From a virus, in the UHGV virus genome UHGV-0128346: a stretch of 30,017 nucleotides of DNA. The stretch is one strand, 5' to 3'. Under the pieces are notes generated by a model, which saw only the letters and a list, made by a program, of their open reading frames with translations, had not been told where the DNA came from and made no database searches. The position numbers and the translations under genes are program-made. Positions 3,026 through 29,746 of this stretch are shown here, one piece after another. Each line of letters starts with the position of its first letter. Position 1 is the stretch's first letter.

Positions 3026-4637
3026 GTGGTGTTGTCTCCTCTTCCGGCCTGCGACTCTCCGCTATCTGCTGCTGATACGCCTGCTCTATCCACACCGGAC
3101 GTGAGAGTCCGGCTTTTTGCCGCTCAGCAGATTCCCTGACCTGCTGGCGGAAAATGTCCTGATAATCCTCGCCCATCAGCGCCAGCTCTTTCTCATACGT
3201 GCTCAGTCCGGCCTCAATGCGCATCACTGATTCCTGGACTTCCTTGAGCCCGTCAATGGCCATTCTTCCGGCACCAATCCACTCTGCCCGTGACCAGGCT
3301 GATCGCGCCTGATAAAAATCAAAACGTGCCCGTGGCGGACGAATAATCCCCCGAAGAAGTGCCTCTTCCAGCCAGCAGGAAAACATCTGCGTGGCCAGCC
3401 GGGCCGCAATAAATTTTCGCCGCCCCATAAAATAGCGCCACGACTCATTGGCGGAGGCGCGGGCACTTGAGTAACTGACCTTCGAGTAATCACGGGACAA
3501 CTGTTCGTAGGAAACGCCAAGACCGGCGGCGATATACCGCAGCAGCGCCTGTTCAAGCGCAGAAAATCCATTGTCTGAATCCTGCGCAGTCTGTAGTTTC
3601 AGATCATCACCAGGGAAAAGGTGCGGAATTTTGACACCGCCCAGTGTCACGTTATTCGTGTCATACCAGCTGGAAAACTTCTCCAGAATATTAATAAGCG
3701 GATTATCCTTCTGCTCCTGTGGCGCGCCGGCGATATATTCAAAGGCCTTTTCGGTATCAAGTTCACTTTCAATCGTCGCTGCATACATCGCCTTCACTAT
3801 GGCCGACTGAAGCTGTGTTGCCTGCAGGGAATCGAGCATCTTCAGCCGTTCCATGACGCTGTAAAACTGATTAGCCCCACGGGTCTGCCCGTCCTCCACC
3901 GGCTCGAAAATATGCAGCATGGCCGGACGCCCGGTGGGAAGTTCACGCGGGATCCGTTCCCATCGTCCACTACCAGAGAACGGAAAATCATCCTCACAGA
4001 TATGGTACGCGACGGCACGGCCATATCGATCGACCTCCACACCGGCCCGCAGAAAACGGTTCCCCATACCGTGTCCAGGCGTGTCCACCCGTTTCGGACT
4101 CACGGCTTTAAAACGCGTACGGAATAACTGCGTGGTTTCCGTATCCCAGACCGGCTGCACAAAGATTTCGCCGTTAAACGCATGAACGCCCACACCTTCA
4201 CGGATAAATTCCGTGAACGTGCGTTTTCCTTCCACGTCGATCTCGCCAAACATCCCTTCGGCGTATTCCGACCAGGCCGCCTCCACCTCATCGACAAAGC
4301 TTTTTGCTGCGGTCTCCCGCATCCCCAGCCAGCGCCAGTTCGGACGGTAGCTGATCAGAAACATATGCCCGACAATGTGATCCTTATGCAGAGCCACCGC
4401 ATTAGCCGCTATTCCGTTATTGCGCACCAGATCATCTGCCCGGGCATTCCCCAGACGCAACGCGGGCAGCAGGGCCGCATCGGCACTCTGCGCCGGTGGC
4501 AACCACTCAGCCATTTGCCCGCCAAATCCTGCACCGCCCCCGTTGTAGCTGAGACTCTCACGAAGCGGAACGCCGTTCACATCAATCAGGACAGGCGTTC
4601 GTTTCATAACCTCACTCCCAGCGGACGACGGCGACAC
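3015..4637 (-). CDS. B: Portal protein (lambda gpB-like)
   Basis: 540-aa ORF, about the size of lambda B, between W and C in conserved order. Confidence 0.88.
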   Translation of the reverse strand: MSPSSAGSEVMKRTPVLIDVNGVPLRESLSYNGGGAGFGGQMAEWLPPAQSADAALLPALRLGNARADDLVRNNGIAANAVALHKDHIVGHMFLISYRPNWRWLGMRETAAKSFVDEVEAAWSEYAEGMFGEIDVEGKRTFTEFIREGVGVHAFNGEIFVQPVWDTETTQLFRTRFKAVSPKRVDTPGHGMGNRFLRAGVEVDRYGRAVAYHICEDDFPFSGSGRWERIPRELPTGRPAMLHIFEPVEDGQTRGANQFYSVMERLKMLDSLQATQLQSAIVKAMYAATIESELDTEKAFEYIAGAPQEQKDNPLINILEKFSSWYDTNNVTLGGVKIPHLFPGDDLKLQTAQDSDNGFSALEQALLRYIAAGLGVSYEQLSRDYSKVSYSSARASANESWRYFMGRRKFIAARLATQMFSCWLEEALLRGIIRPPRARFDFYQARSAWSRAEWIGAGRMAIDGLKEVQESVMRIEAGLSTYEKELALMGEDYQDIFRQQVRESAERQKAGLSRPVWIEQAYQQQIAESRRPEEETTPRET

Positions 4638-17171: not shown

Positions 17172-17561
17172 TCAGGCGGCTGCACCCGCCGTTTTCTCGT
17201 ACTTACTGATAGTGATCTCGACCTTCCCTTCCGGGATAACCGGTCCCCACTCCACCAGCATTCTTTTCACCTGACTGTCGTCTTCCCACACACCCGCGTG
17301 GGTCAGGGCGTCAAACAGCGCCTTGTTATAGTTGTCCAGATCGCGGATCCGGTTATCCGGAGGAAACAACACGATCTCCACTGAAGCAGGTGCCGACGTT
17401 GGTTTCGGCAGACGACGTAACTGCTCAACTATTGCTGCGCACGCCGCGCTCTGGAATTTTCGCCCCGCCGCGCTTATCAGGCTCTTACCAGCAAACGCCC
17501 CTTTGTTGGGGTGTCGCCAGTACGTGTTCACGCTGGGCGGAAAAGGCAGGATCAGCTTCAT
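17172..17561 (-). CDS. rusA: RusA Holliday-junction resolvase
   Basis: 129 aa with PFPPSVNTYWRH...DLDNYNKALFDALTHAGVWEDDSQV, matching RusA catalytic-region motifs. Confidence 0.9.
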   Translation of the reverse strand: MKLILPFPPSVNTYWRHPNKGAFAGKSLISAAGRKFQSAACAAIVEQLRRLPKPTSAPASVEIVLFPPDNRIRDLDNYNKALFDALTHAGVWEDDSQVKRMLVEWGPVIPEGKVEITISKYEKTAGAAA

Positions 17562-17884
17562 ACTTTCAGGCCCCTCTCATGTAACCAGTGGGCTGCACGC
17601 AGCCTTGCGTTTTCCTCACCGGCAAGCAGTGAGCGGATAATCCCGACCGCCTCGCTGTCGTCGTCCTTCACCGCGGTATGAAGCGTGATGCCCCGGGCCA
17701 CGCCACGCTTTATCGTGATGACGCCTTTTTTCTCCAGTGCGCGAAGATGCTCCACCGCTGCATTCACTGAACGGTATCCCAGCATGGTTGCCACCTCCTG
17801 ATTGGTTGGCGGGAAGCCACGTTCTTTCTGATAAGAAATCAGCATATCCAGCACCTGCTGCTGGCATTGAGTTAACGTCGTCAT
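17558..17884 (-). CDS. LexA N-terminal DNA-binding-domain homologue lacking the S24 peptidase domain
   Basis: First ~70 aa (LTQCQQQVLDMLISYQKERGFPPTNQEVATMLGYRSVNAAVEHLRALEKKGVITIKRGVARGITL) match the recalled E. coli LexA N-terminus motif for motif; total length 108 aa. Confidence 0.7.
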   Translation of the reverse strand: MTTLTQCQQQVLDMLISYQKERGFPPTNQEVATMLGYRSVNAAVEHLRALEKKGVITIKRGVARGITLHTAVKDDDSEAVGIIRSLLAGEENARLRAAHWLHERGLKV

Positions 17885-18534
17885 GCCGCCATCTCCCTGA
17901 CCAGTTTTTCCGCCTGCTGGCGAACCTGCACCAGAAAGGCTTCACCACATGCCTCAAGTTCATCGCGCCCGATGTAGCTGATTGCCGGTCCCTTCCAGGT
18001 CTTGTCGAAAACAGCAATAGCACCAGCGAAGAAAGCGCCTGTCGGCACCTGCTTCTCATCCTTCGGGATAAACCAGGCAGGCAGTTCAAAACCAATACGC
18101 CCGCGAATAAAAGCAATATGGTCCGCATCTTCCGGCCACCACACTTCGCTGGTGGCAGCTTTGATCAGGAAAACATAGCGCCCGCCCTTATCACGCATGG
18201 CACTGGCATGTTTCATGATGTAACGCATGCCGGTGATGTATTGCCCCTCATGCTGACTGGCGCGGCTGTATGGGGGATTACCAAAGGCAGCACCTTTAAG
18301 CTCCGCAAGACGTTCTGACCAGTCATGCGCCAGCGCGTTATCTTCCGCCGTGTAATACGCGGCACATTTGGCGTTATCACCGTCAGTAAACAGATCCAGA
18401 ACAAACGGGCCAAACAGGGTGTTAATTCCCCAGAAAATGTTGTCCGGCGTGCGCCACTGATCGCCCACTTCCTTCAGTTCATGGGCTGGTTTGTTCCGCA
18501 GTTCCGCCAGCGCCTGGCAATATTTATTACTCAT
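17881..18534 (-). CDS. Phage Dam-family N6-adenine DNA methyltransferase
   Basis: FGNPPYS catalytic motif; likely start at Met12, where the upstream stop and this ATG overlap (TAATG). Confidence 0.8.
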   Translation of the reverse strand: MSNKYCQALAELRNKPAHELKEVGDQWRTPDNIFWGINTLFGPFVLDLFTDGDNAKCAAYYTAEDNALAHDWSERLAELKGAAFGNPPYSRASQHEGQYITGMRYIMKHASAMRDKGGRYVFLIKAATSEVWWPEDADHIAFIRGRIGFELPAWFIPKDEKQVPTGAFFAGAIAVFDKTWKGPAISYIGRDELEACGEAFLVQVRQQAEKLVREMAA

Positions 18535-19028
18535 TAAGCCCCCACGTAATTCCCTGAGAGATACCACTCTTCACCTGATGCAGCCCGCTTACTGCTTTTC
18601 CGTAAACACCGTTCACGACGCGCCAGAAAATTGTTTCGTTCTGGCTGGGAGTGGCTTTCACGGAATGCCGCCATCCACACCGTTGCAGCACGACGGTATA
18701 AGCCCCTCGACTCCAGTTCTTCAGCCTGGCGGGTCAGGCACAAAATCACCCGGGGGTCGTTAGTGCCGACATAGAACTTGCGCACAGGTCTGGTTTCACG
18801 AACTGGTTGTGGTTCCGGCTCCTGCGCTCTCTCAGTCAGGCGCGAGAAATGTCTGCGTGTATCTCCTTCACAACGGTGAGCCACACGCCCACTCTGACGT
18901 AACTTGCTTGCTGACTGCAGAACGCGCTGCCGTGAGTAACCTGCAAAAGCATCCGCAATGTCTCCGGAAGTACACCCCGGATGGGCTTCAATGAATTTCT
19001 GAACTTCATTCAAAAGACTCATGATCAC
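18534..19028 (-). CDS. PerC-family transcriptional regulator-like protein (Pch-like)
   Basis: C-terminal RGLYRRAATVWMAAF...ERNNFLARRERC fits the PerC motif (G-x-[WY]-RRAA-x-x-W); start overlaps the stop of the replication gene (ATGA). Confidence 0.45.
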   Translation of the reverse strand: MIMSLLNEVQKFIEAHPGCTSGDIADAFAGYSRQRVLQSASKLRQSGRVAHRCEGDTRRHFSRLTERAQEPEPQPVRETRPVRKFYVGTNDPRVILCLTRQAEELESRGLYRRAATVWMAAFRESHSQPERNNFLARRERCLRKSSKRAASGEEWYLSGNYVGA

Positions 19029-20017
19029 CCCCTGAATCCTGCCGGGATCTGGCTGTAGTCCACGTTGTCGTAACTGGATTTGAAGTACGGATCTTCACGT
19101 TTTTCTGTGTATGTGCTGACGGACGGCGATAAGCGCAGGGAAAGCTCATCCCATTTTTCCCGCAGCTTCGACGGGCTGAGCACGTTACGGCACCAGAACG
19201 GATCGCGGCTGACGCGGCTGTACATCTCGCAGATTTGTTTGTGAGTACGACCATCCTGCACACACATCAGGCGAATTTCGTTTGCCCAGGCTGTCCAGTT
19301 CGGTTCTTTGGGACGAACCACCTCGCCGTCACATTCGGCAGCCTGCTCGTACAGGGCGATGATTTTTTTCCAGAGCCACTGTGCGCAGGTCAAATCATCC
19401 TGCGTTCCCCACTGGCGCTTTTTAGGGCTGAATACAACCGCATCAGGATGGCGAGTTAAAAACTCCTGTTCAGCCGTTTGCGTGTCCGGTTGCGAAGCGT
19501 CCGGACGAGAAGAGGTTTTATTCTCTGTAGTAATCTCTGTTGTATTCTCTGTAAGATCATTGGGCCATTTTGACCCGATGACAGCGTGTCGTTTTGAACC
19601 AATGGATCGTGTCATTTTGCGCCCATCCATCAGGTCACTTTGACCCGATGGAGAAGTGCATTTTGACCTGATGGATTCGTTCACTTTGACCTCTTCTAAA
19701 AGCTCACTTTCATAGTTGATCGTGTAGAAGTTGGTCATGTCACGCTTCGATTTATTGAGTTGCTCGCGACGCAAAACCCCAAGTGATTTCAGGCTTGCAA
19801 ATGTGCGTTTCAGAGTGGACTCTGACCAGAACGGAAACTGCTCCAGCCACTGTTCTGTCGTGTTATAAACCCAGCGAATTCCGCCATGCTCAGTGCCTGA
19901 ATTCGTTTCATTCAGCCAGTAATGAAGCTGCTGCAACACAATTGCCTCATTCAGACCAATACGGCATGCAAGATCACGATTTATCACAATGGGCTGGGAT
20001 GTCATTAACAGGCTCAT
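19025..20017 (-). CDS. Replication initiator (lambda O-like: N-terminal DNA-binding part, iterons within the gene)
   Basis: 330 aa; at least five ~16-bp iterons (consensus CAYTTTGACCYGATGG) lie inside the coding sequence next to an AT-rich stretch, the arrangement of ori-lambda inside O. Confidence 0.7.
   Translation of the reverse strand: MSLLMTSQPIVINRDLACRIGLNEAIVLQQLHYWLNETNSGTEHGGIRWVYNTTEQWLEQFPFWSESTLKRTFASLKSLGVLRREQLNKSKRDMTNFYTINYESELLEEVKVNESIRSKCTSPSGQSDLMDGRKMTRSIGSKRHAVIGSKWPNDLTENTTEITTENKTSSRPDASQPDTQTAEQEFLTRHPDAVVFSPKKRQWGTQDDLTCAQWLWKKIIALYEQAAECDGEVVRPKEPNWTAWANEIRLMCVQDGRTHKQICEMYSRVSRDPFWCRNVLSPSKLREKWDELSLRLSPSVSTYTEKREDPYFKSSYDNVDYSQIPAGFRG
19563..19715. repeat. Origin iterons (5-6 copies of CAYTTTGACCYGATGG at ~22-bp spacing)
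   Basis: Direct repeats read in the sequence: cattttgacccgatg, cactttgacccgatgg, cattttgacctgatgg, cactttgacctc, plus weaker copies. Confidence 0.65.
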
Positions 20018-20238
20018 GCCGCACCTCCGAGATGCTTCATGTTTTTTCCGGAGCGAAAGGCTATAAGCGGCATACTGACGCGGTAATTACGACCCAGCGG
20101 TTCACAAATCACCTTCTGACATTCACGGTCCACCAGGCTAACACGTAGAACATGCCCTGCAGGCGTGGTGTACCACTGACCGGGGCGAGGACAACGGAAA
20201 GTCTGATTGGTAAATCGTTTGAAAATATTCCGGATCAT
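20014..20238 (-). CDS. Hypothetical protein (74 aa)
   Basis: Both ends overlap neighbouring genes by 4 nt (ATGA), suggesting translational coupling in the early-right operon. Confidence 0.45.
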   Translation of the reverse strand: MIRNIFKRFTNQTFRCPRPGQWYTTPAGHVLRVSLVDRECQKVICEPLGRNYRVSMPLIAFRSGKNMKHLGGAA

Positions 20239-20780
20239 TTGCGCCCCCTTACCTCTGAAGGGTTCAGCGACAAATTTATGAGACTGGCCAGTAGCGCCGC
20301 GTCGTTGATGCGGTCATACAGACTTACAGCCAGCGGGGATTCGGCTTTTGCCAACATGGGATAAAGCTGCTGCAGCCAGACCTGATGAATTGATGAAATG
20401 TAGGAATAGAGAACGCTGGCGTTATGTGCAACGTCGCTCAGTACAGAGGGATTTGAAAGCTGTTTCTCCATCTGGTTAAAGGCATTGATGTATGCCTCTT
20501 TGAACCGGGCAGCACGTTTCCCCGTGAAGCCCATGGCAAGAAACGCAAAACCGTCGCGGGTGATTTGGTAACAAGGGAGTTTGCGGCCTGTGCAATCGGT
20601 GTAATCACTGGGCTGAAAATTCAGCTCAGTGAATTCAACAGAGCACTCAAGCGTCTGGATTTTTTGAATAACGTTTTTGTGCTGCTTGCAGAAATATTCG
20701 GCAACGGCCAAAGAAGAGGTAACAGCCTTCCCATGGATAACATCAATTTTAGGGTGAGTTTGGGTAGGGGTGGTTGCCAT
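20235..20780 (-). CDS. Phage regulatory protein Rha
   Basis: From the internal Met, VTSSLAVAEYFCKQHKNVIQKI...YQITRDGFAFLAMGFTGKRAARFKEAYINAF matches the Rha N-terminal domain; GAGGA ribosome-binding site 9 nt upstream. Confidence 0.7.
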   Translation of the reverse strand: MATTPTQTHPKIDVIHGKAVTSSLAVAEYFCKQHKNVIQKIQTLECSVEFTELNFQPSDYTDCTGRKLPCYQITRDGFAFLAMGFTGKRAARFKEAYINAFNQMEKQLSNPSVLSDVAHNASVLYSYISSIHQVWLQQLYPMLAKAESPLAVSLYDRINDAALLASLINLSLNPSEVRGRK

Positions 20781-20942
20781 AGTGACATCCTCATGTGCGA
20801 ATTTTGAAAACTCACCACATGGGACGCCAATCACAGAGGTGGTGAGACGTACAGGGTTGGCGTAACCGGTCGCACATGACCCCGGCGCATCTTTCGATGC
20901 CCCTGCACGCCCCACCATAATTTGGATGTGAGGAAACGTGCG

Positions 20943-20966
20943 CAAAAAAACCGCTGAAGCGCGGTT
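20943..20966 (-). terminator. tR1-like intrinsic terminator in the early-right operon
   Basis: ACCGC-TGAAGC-GCGGT hairpin followed by U7 on the minus strand. Confidence 0.5.
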
Positions 20967-21376
20967 ATGCGCATGTGCGAATTTCAGGACGCCAATCCCG
21001 GCACCCGCTTTATAAGGTGCCTGAACAGTGTAACGTCCCGGAATTGCAGAATCAATATGCTGGTGGTCCTTCACACTCAACAAAATCACGCCTGAATTTC
21101 CACAAAGGACTAAAGCACTCATGCGGGTAGTCTTTGCGAAGATAGATAACGCGCTGTGTTTCTGGCTCCCAACGAATAACATGGACATAAAGCCCTCTTC
21201 CGTCACGAAACCAGCGGTTAAGTTCCTGCACAACTCGCCCCCCACAGTCAGGTAAAGTTCTCTGTGGTTACTTACAGCCAGGTGATTTGGTAATCTGCAT
21301 TCATGCCGTAACAACAGGTGTTCAGCGACGCTGACCACCAGCTGTTGCGACAAACGGTTATTTGCCGTTAAACTAT

Positions 21377-21946
21377 TCATGCGTTAGTTTCTCCACAACC
21401 AGAAGCAATCGACGCCACGACGCCCGGAGCTGCACACTCGCGGGCGTTACTCTTTTCTGGAGCGCAGAAGATTTTGTAGACCAGTGCTGCATGCTCCTGG
21501 AGCTTCGAAATTGAAAGATACAGTTCGTCGTTAATTGCTGTCTTCTCATGCGGTTCCACTACACCGTCTTCGATTGCTGAACGAATCTGTCTGGAATAAC
21601 TGCCGATCTGTTCAATGACTTCCAGCAGGCGCTGGTTTATATCGGCGTTCTCTACTGCCTCAATTTCAGGAAGCGATACGAACACCCCACCAGCAGACTG
21701 TGCGACAGCATCCGCAATGTAGTGAGTGCCAGCCGCACGCTGTAAAACCATTGCCCATCCCAGCGGGAAAATCTGATCGCCATCTGCACGAAGGCGGTTG
21801 AATAATGCGTTCTCTGTTACATCCAGCCACTCAGCAGCTTCAGCGTAACCCCCCGGCAACGCCGCGATAGTTTTTCTGACAGCTTTCACGTACCACTCAG
21901 GCTGTTTTTCTACTTTCCAGTGATGCTTACCCACGGTTAGCCTCAT
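21377..21946 (-). CDS. CII/YdaT-like regulatory protein (189 aa)
   Basis: Immediately follows the Cro/YdaS-like gene, as ydaT follows ydaS in prophage Rac; weak resemblance to 186-type CII; family not confirmed. Confidence 0.4.
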   Translation of the reverse strand: MRLTVGKHHWKVEKQPEWYVKAVRKTIAALPGGYAEAAEWLDVTENALFNRLRADGDQIFPLGWAMVLQRAAGTHYIADAVAQSAGGVFVSLPEIEAVENADINQRLLEVIEQIGSYSRQIRSAIEDGVVEPHEKTAINDELYLSISKLQEHAALVYKIFCAPEKSNARECAAPGVVASIASGCGETNA

Positions 21947-29464: not shown

Positions 29465-29746
29465 ATGAACACCTTGTTTTTACTGATGGCTGAATTCAAT
29501 ACCCCTAACATTGAACTCTCAGCAGTTAGCCAAAAGTACTTTGGCATGAGTCCAGCCACGGCAGAAGCAAAAGCAAACGCTTGTAAGTTGCCCGTTCCAA
29601 CATATCGCATCGGCACATCACAAAAAGCAAAACGTTGCATCAATATTCAGGATCTTGCGGAATACATAGACAAAAGACGAGAAGAAGGACGTATCGAGTG
29701 GGAACAGGTCAGAACAGGCAAACAGAAGGGCAAAGAACATCACTAA
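29465..29746 (+). CDS. PrtN-family / excisionase-like DNA-binding protein
   Basis: ORF track begins at a GTG; an ATG with GGAG ribosome-binding site lies at 29465; KLPVPTYRIGTSQKAKRCINIQDLAEYID resembles PrtN/Xis-like winged helix; last gene of the early-left operon. Confidence 0.45.
   Translation: MNTLFLLMAEFNTPNIELSAVSQKYFGMSPATAEAKANACKLPVPTYRIGTSQKAKRCINIQDLAEYIDKRREEGRIEWEQVRTGKQKGKEHH

Follow-up and report, generated by a model that had tools for sequence, protein, structure and literature searches.

Does a prophage that carries a gene with a PerC domain thereby carry a regulator of the LEE and, if not, what could such a gene be doing in the replication region of a lambdoid genome? The question is raised by a minus-strand gene of the UHGV virus genome UHGV-0128346, the full 30,017 nucleotides of which are hereinafter referred to as the window.

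Identity, extent and distribution of the gene

The gene resides within the minus-strand ORF 18534..19028 (164 aa from a GTG codon), and the coordinates given in the initial annotation match the ORF list exactly. The GTG at 19028 is the start used both in the RefSeq models and in that annotation. The start that we prefer is the ATG at 19020-19022, which yields a 162-aa protein with the N-terminus MSLLNEV; inspection of the sequence shows GGGGG at 19028-19032, 5 nt upstream of this codon. The ATG is taken as the start because the two family alignments, which reach down to relatives with 25% identity, show little or no variation at Met1-Ser2; the RefSeq GTG model is probably 6 nt too long (the resulting coordinates are collected in Table 1). 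The dN/dS values in comparisons with the homologs from SfV, ST64B and a Salmonella relative are 0.16-0.26 overall, so that this is a genuine coding gene under constraint. Each of the domains described below is constrained as well (dN/dS 0.17-0.42) when compared with the two more divergent relatives (ST64B and Salmonella), the differences from SfV being too few for per-domain estimates.

Table 1. Coordinates of the yfdN-type gene, the parts of its product and the adjacent genes in the window
Feature	Position	Strand	Remarks
O-like replication initiator, 330 aa	19025..20017	-	upstream of yfdN; PHROG 391 'replication initiation O-like', E 1e-101
yfdN-type CDS	18534..19022	-	162 aa plus TAA stop; PHROG 1324, Pfam PerC, conserved Met1-Ser2
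N-terminal winged-helix domain	18825..19022	-	residues 1-66; three helices, then beta-hairpin wing
Variable linker, predicted disordered	18747..18824	-	residues 67-92
PerC core	18576..18731	-	residues 98-149, the Pfam PF06069 match
C-terminal tail	18537..18575	-	subfamily motif W-x-L-(A/S)-G-x-(Y/F)-x-G (family alignments)
Dam-family N6-adenine methyltransferase	17881..18534	-	downstream of yfdN; Pfam PF05869, E 9.8e-46; PADLOC type II MTase

It is near certain that this gene is the yfdN of lambdoid prophages of the SfV, mEp460 and CPS-53 type. The encoded protein is 100% identical to the copy in phage vB_EcoM-720R4, which is labelled "putative protein YfdN", and shows 96% identity to SfV orf40 and to the mEp460 homolog, and 68.5% identity to Sb43 of ST64B (gene sb43); at the DNA level, the gene is 98.0% identical to yfdN of K-12 MG1655. 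There is, furthermore, a full-length match to PHROG 1324 ("transcriptional activator"; residues 1-161, E 5.9e-78). The homologs from K-12 (CPS-53/KpLE1, b2357), SfV, ST64B and mEp460 all have the same length and the same two-domain layout as the window protein, and their genes follow the replication gene as in the window. The differences are of no substance: the initiator with which the gene is paired is not that of SfV, and the start chosen in database models (GTG) is probably 6 nt too far upstream. Thus, yfdN is an already known, routine part of a very common type of prophage, and its assignment to the PerC family is part of its RefSeq name ("yfdN: PerC family transcriptional regulator").

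The spread of the gene is broad. Homologs covering at least 80% of the length were identified in 2547 of the 5426 complete E. coli genomes (~47%), among them K-12 MG1655, MC4100, the type strain ATCC 11775, ECOR strains and O157:H7, and copies that are 97-99% identical to the window protein are encoded by Stx2a- and Stx2c-converting phages of O157:H7. Outside E. coli, homologs are found in Shigella phage SfV and Salmonella phage ST64B, with further relatives in Enterobacter prophages. In the literature, we found no experiment that assigns a function to YfdN.

Two-domain architecture and relationship to PerC, Pch and ANR

An exhaustive HMMER search combined with two word-indexed searches delineates a family of proteins of ~140-175 aa that align with YfdN end to end, down to ~25% identity. 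An AlphaFold2 model for which 36 of these relatives served as input (mean pLDDT 77.9) shows a predicted two-domain protein in which a winged helix is joined by a flexible linker to a three-helix PerC core. The predicted winged helix consists of helices at residues 3-13, 19-25 and 31-44 followed by a beta hairpin at 47-60 (pLDDT 76-85 by block), and the core of a three-helix unit spanning residues 90-142 (helices 90-105, 109-122 and 126-142; pLDDT 90-94 by block over 91-140). Between them, the model has a disordered linker at residues 67-89, with pLDDT below 50 at 67-79, and neither the length nor the sequence of the linker is conserved in the family alignment. Both domains are kept across the 36 relatives down to 25% identity, and both are under purifying selection. 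The N-terminal part alone corresponds to PHROG 23071 and the C-terminal part alone to PHROGs 2608 and 10396, which indicates that both modules also exist as standalone proteins. By sequence, no relative of YfdN was detected in the PDB at E values up to 10, and the fold matches of the winged helix and of the helical hairpin are generic. Among the PADLOC models, no defense system matched the YfdN-type protein, the neighboring Dam being the only gene of the locus with a match (to methyltransferase models).

How close, then, is this protein to PerC? The description of the gene as PerC-family regulator-like, based on a C-terminal motif, is upheld by the Pfam PerC profile: PF06069 is matched at 36.2 bits (E 7.2e-09; profile positions 5-56 of 90), above the gathering cut-off of 22.6 bits. 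When the window protein is aligned with EPEC PerC (pMAR2, 89 aa), a group-1 Pch (O26:H11 strain 11368, 104 aa, 315 bp) and six other relatives, eight residues (A100, L103, G107, R111, A112, A113, R136 and C139) do not vary. The identity to these proteins amounts to 37% over 46 aa for EPEC PerC and 41% over 44 aa for group-1 Pch, and is restricted to residues 98-143. What YfdN has in common with PerC and PchA/B/C is thus a core of ~50 residues with the pattern A-x2-LE-x-kGLyRRAA-x-W ... R-x2-C.

Beyond this core, the differences are conspicuous. PerC and Pch are single-domain proteins of 89-104 aa, whereas YfdN, with 162 aa, has the added winged helix and linker; conversely, the C-terminal 40-50 residues that are conserved in PerC and Pch have no counterpart in YfdN, and the motif in the YfdN tail is absent from PerC and Pch. 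The genomic settings differ as well. The perC gene belongs to the plasmid perABC operon (pMAR2/pEAF), and the one group-1 pch copy that was examined (O26 strain 11368) lies between a lysis gene and an HNH endonuclease/terminase cluster, not in an early operon, whereas yfdN is located between the replication initiator gene and dam. Activation of LEE1 has been demonstrated for PerC and PchA/B/C (PMC5931665, PMC4764244). Thus, we have to conclude that the architecture of YfdN is not that of a LEE activator of the Pch/PerC type.

Two further groups of proteins are relevant here. The helical core of YfdN resembles in its pattern the short helical core of the ANR (AraC negative regulator, Aar-like) family, and the NCBIfam model ANR_neg_reg (NF033650) is matched over residues 96-142, with a score, 23.7 bits, that does not reach the curated cut-off of 32 bits; in contrast to the two-domain YfdN, the members of the ANR family are small one-domain proteins (PMC11773190) that have no winged helix. 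PchD, PchE and EcCIMP1_025 are, like YfdN, PerC-domain proteins encoded on mobile elements, and the function of these three is not LEE activation; the elements on which they reside are SpLE1, the cryptic prophage Sp7 and phage-inducible islands, rather than a lambdoid early operon (PMC1890555, PMC11773190). YfdN does not represent the PchD or PchE type, given that pchD resides in SpLE1 and pchE in Sp7 (PMC1890555).

Location in the early operon

The initial annotation placed the gene in the replication/nin region, and the neighborhood bears this out, with an O-like initiator gene upstream, and dam followed by genes for a LexA-DNA-binding-domain protein and RusA downstream. According to the annotation of the near-identical EC09 prophage together with our own domain scans, the order along the minus strand is cro, YmfL (cII-like), DUF4222, Rha/Ash, a 74-aa protein, the O-like initiator, YfdN and Dam, followed by a protein consisting of a LexA DNA-binding domain only, RusA, KilA-N, DUF968 and Q. 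The genes around yfdN are tightly packed: the TGA of the initiator gene (19025-19027) lies 2 nt before the ATG of yfdN and overlaps the alternative GTG start, and the TAA stop of yfdN shares one base with the ATG of dam (TAATG at 18532-18536). A consensus scan of the minus strand, covering the initiator gene, the LexA-like gene and everything in between, revealed no promoter-like or terminator-like sites. Taken together with the overlapping or abutting codons, this places yfdN in the rightward early (PR) operon.

The slot after the initiator gene is the same in SfV, ST64B and six distant relatives with ~30-44% identity, which represent E. coli, Salmonella and Enterobacter as well as a metagenome and a sequencing-run assembly. 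A 4-bp overlap between the start of the yfdN-type gene and the end of the gene for an O-like or Phg_2220_C initiator is seen in five of these six.

Downstream of yfdN, the gene content varies. The adjoining position (that of dam in the window, 5444-6112 in L003, 4471-6807 in L012 and 2983-3876 in L016) is filled by unrelated genes of the DNA-modification type, namely Dam, MT-A70, a 778-aa fusion of C5 and D12 methylases and, in ST64B, a PAPS-reductase-like gene; in several E. coli copies, judging from the features listed under the match, the next gene is apparently of the LexA family, with no methylase. Such variety identifies the slot as the variable nin region, and in lambda, ren, ninB and ninC are found at the corresponding place. 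A specific link between yfdN and methyltransferases was considered and dropped, in view of the PAPS-reductase-like gene in ST64B (cf. lambda NinC nearby) and of the copies that apparently lack a methylase.

Mosaicism, divergence and the replication module

The position of yfdN, which is always directly downstream of an O-like or Phg_2220_C initiator gene, in relatives down to ~30% identity, and the overlap of its start with the initiator stop in five of the six relatives that were fetched would fit a role in replication itself. YfdN could then be an accessory factor that helps the initiator to recruit the host helicase or to organize the origin, its gene being the second one of the replication module and corresponding in position to lambda P or ren. 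The annotations of the early regions of SfV and of the EC09 prophage list no gene for a helicase or a helicase loader, and the replication proteins of the non-lambda 'Eru' type regions have been described as uncharacterized (PMC8951638), both of which would speak for such a factor.

The pattern of divergence weakens this possibility. The 330-aa initiator of the window and the 272-aa orf39 product of SfV are unrelated except for the last 31 residues, which are 84% identical, and nevertheless these two initiators are accompanied by YfdN proteins with 96% identity. Conversely, in three loci (L003, L006 and L014), the YfdN relatives are only 45-52% identical whereas the flanking initiators and MT-A70 methylases are 85-88% identical. 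The identities of the initiator and of YfdN are thus mismatched in both directions, which amounts to a lack of co-variation, and profile searches reveal no signature of an ATPase or helicase loader in YfdN. Besides, in lambdoid phages the order of modules is conserved whatever the function. On the whole, we regard a replication function as unlikely.

The junction between the unrelated and the similar parts of the two initiator genes resembles a joint left by mosaic recombination within the 3' end of the replication gene. The shared 3' end extends over 19025-19120 in the window and 4110-4207 in the SfV locus (L011), immediately before the nearly identical yfdN. In the three loci that combine divergent YfdN with similar flanks, the small LexA-DNA-binding-domain protein likewise diverges fast (59-65% identity). 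The rapid divergence of YfdN would also be in keeping with a protein engaged in conflict with some factor of the host or of a rival, as opposed to a housekeeping regulator.

A possible phage-centered function of YfdN

So what could be the function of this conserved protein? The scenario that we favor, and to which we assign slightly less than even chances, is that YfdN is an early DNA-binding regulator or anti-silencer of the phage, a proposal that draws on analogy with Pch. Under this scenario, YfdN would be synthesized along with the replication proteins at an early stage of the lytic cycle; its winged helix would bind DNA, and its PerC core would serve in protein contacts or in anti-silencing. 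Activation of LEE1 by Pch is achieved through displacement of H-NS/StpA complexes (PMC4764244) and, by analogy, YfdN may relieve H-NS silencing as well; the analogy fails, however, if the activity of Pch resides in the C-terminal half, which YfdN lacks. YfdN would thus be a phage-centered modulator of early transcription that acts on phage or host promoters, any effect on the LEE being incidental and limited to LEE-positive hosts. Weak support for such a mechanism comes from three published observations: in CFT073 exposed to nitric oxide, the expression of yfdN changes along with that of the neighboring prophage genes (PMC5320621); overexpression of K-12 yfdN alters glycogen accumulation (PMC2853380); and the 'negative regulation of transcription' cluster of a computed K-12 interactome includes YfdN (bioRxiv 10.1101/2025.05.07.652715).

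A bolder extension of the same idea, of which we are rather doubtful, is that the YfdN-type proteins constitute a distinct class of lambdoid early proteins with a phage-centered job and that the LEE-activating PerC and Pch are stripped-down, host-directed offshoots of a phage module that would be the older of the two. The observations that may point in this direction are the fusion of a predicted winged helix with the PerC core, the fixed slot after the initiator gene, and divergence that is faster than that of the neighboring genes. Should this be the case, YfdN might relieve H-NS silencing of late or accessory genes of the phage or, alternatively, might counter a factor of the host or of a rival element.

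Alternatively, one could imagine a negative regulator similar to ANR/Aar or to EcCIMP1_025, in which the helical core binds and inactivates a transcription factor of the host or of a rival element, for instance an AraC-type activator or H-NS. Such a role would be compatible with the sub-threshold ANR match, with the fast divergence of YfdN relative to the flanking genes, and with the interactome cluster mentioned above; moreover, a PerC-annotated island protein does act as a repressor and has been proposed to be ANR-like (PMC11773190). The ANR score of YfdN is, however, under the cut-off whereas the PerC score is over its own, and the annotated early region of the near-identical EC09 prophage includes no partner of the AraC family. 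Furthermore, ANR proteins are small and consist of a single domain, unlike YfdN with its extra winged helix. We therefore consider this role to be improbable.

YfdN and the LEE

The claim that brought this gene to attention, namely that it would make the prophage a potential regulator of the LEE and of host virulence genes, finds no support in the present analysis. In its specific form, this reading holds that YfdN acts like PerC and PchA/B/C, activating the LEE1 (ler) promoter and thereby increasing type III secretion in a LEE-positive host. The significant PerC domain, with all invariant residues of the core in place, speaks for it, as do the nearly identical copies on the Stx2a and Stx2c phages of O157:H7, through which the protein meets the LEE in some hosts. 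The distribution of the gene speaks against it. A gene that is present in about half of the complete E. coli genomes, including K-12, which has no LEE, and that recurs in Shigella and Salmonella phages and in Enterobacter prophages, is not tied to the LEE and does not mark its prophage as a virulence regulator. The architecture and the setting argue in the same direction, with only ~45-50 residues common to PerC and Pch, the C-terminal half of these proteins absent and a winged helix extra, and with the early operon in place of the lysis-terminase slot of the group-1 pch copy.

Nor is the PerC domain as such a predictor of function. [quoted passage not shown] Similarly, LEE1 is repressed by the PerC-like protein EcCIMP1_025, the gene of which belongs to a phage-inducible chromosomal island, and does not respond to the PerC-like genes of the EDL933 and CFT073 islands (PMC11773190). 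Because the homologs that have been tested activate, ignore or repress LEE1, a PerC domain match is not evidence of LEE activation. With regard to YfdN itself, we found no experiment on ler or the LEE in the literature; one group, which called yfdN "the K12 unique PerC homologue", deleted it from their K-12 host for the ler-lacZ reporter, apparently to be on the safe side (PMC5931665), and this can be read in favor of a LEE activator. No host flank is evident in the window, and its best genome matches carry prophage genes only.

All things considered, activation of the LEE by YfdN appears quite improbable. The presence of yfdN says nothing about the LEE or about pathogenic potential, which makes the gene minor as a virulence lead, and the general lesson for annotation is that a match to the PerC domain does not by itself show LEE activation. 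What we are dealing with is a conserved, two-domain early gene that is found in about half of the complete E. coli genomes and in some Stx2a and Stx2c phages, and for which we found no functional study.

Finally, the possibility that YfdN is a Ren-like protein directed against exclusion by a resident prophage, with a Ren-type winged helix fused to the PerC core, is a very remote one: there is a weak match to PHROG 142 ('Ren-like exclusion protein'; residues 3-68, E 0.0069), an in-register profile alignment to residues 7-54 of lambda Ren, and a position directly after the replication genes, the same as that of ren, but hhalign to lambda Ren gives an E value of 0.017 with a probability of only 2.75%, BLASTP finds nothing, and any two winged helices would align likewise.

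Other genes of the early region

Several observations on the genes around yfdN deserve mention in their own right. In SfV (U82619.2), the authors of the sequence annotated a putative dam promoter, with -35 and -10 elements, inside the 3' end of orf40 (29523-29549, corresponding to 4607-4633 of L011); in the window, a consensus scan of the corresponding stretch (~18600-18625) detected nothing promoter-like. Further downstream, the minus-strand gene at 17558-17884 encodes a 108-aa protein that consists of a LexA DNA-binding domain only (PF01726, E 2.9e-19), without the peptidase domain, and its position is conserved in SfV and in five of the six relatives that were checked. On the other side, the initiator gene is immediately preceded by a 74-aa minus-strand ORF (20014-20238), the two sharing 4 bp; this ORF belongs by its profile match to PHROG 1153 (unknown function; E 1.3e-45), and Pfam yields nothing for it. 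This ORF is preceded, at 20235-21380 on the same strand, by a 381-aa ORF with Ash (residues 117-211) and Rha (residues 221-306) domains, at the site of which the EC09 RefSeq model shows a shorter Rha protein overlapped by the DUF4222 gene. The arrangement of the two domains resembles the Rha/Ash 'Eru6/Eru7' types of replication region in Stx phages (PMC8951638).
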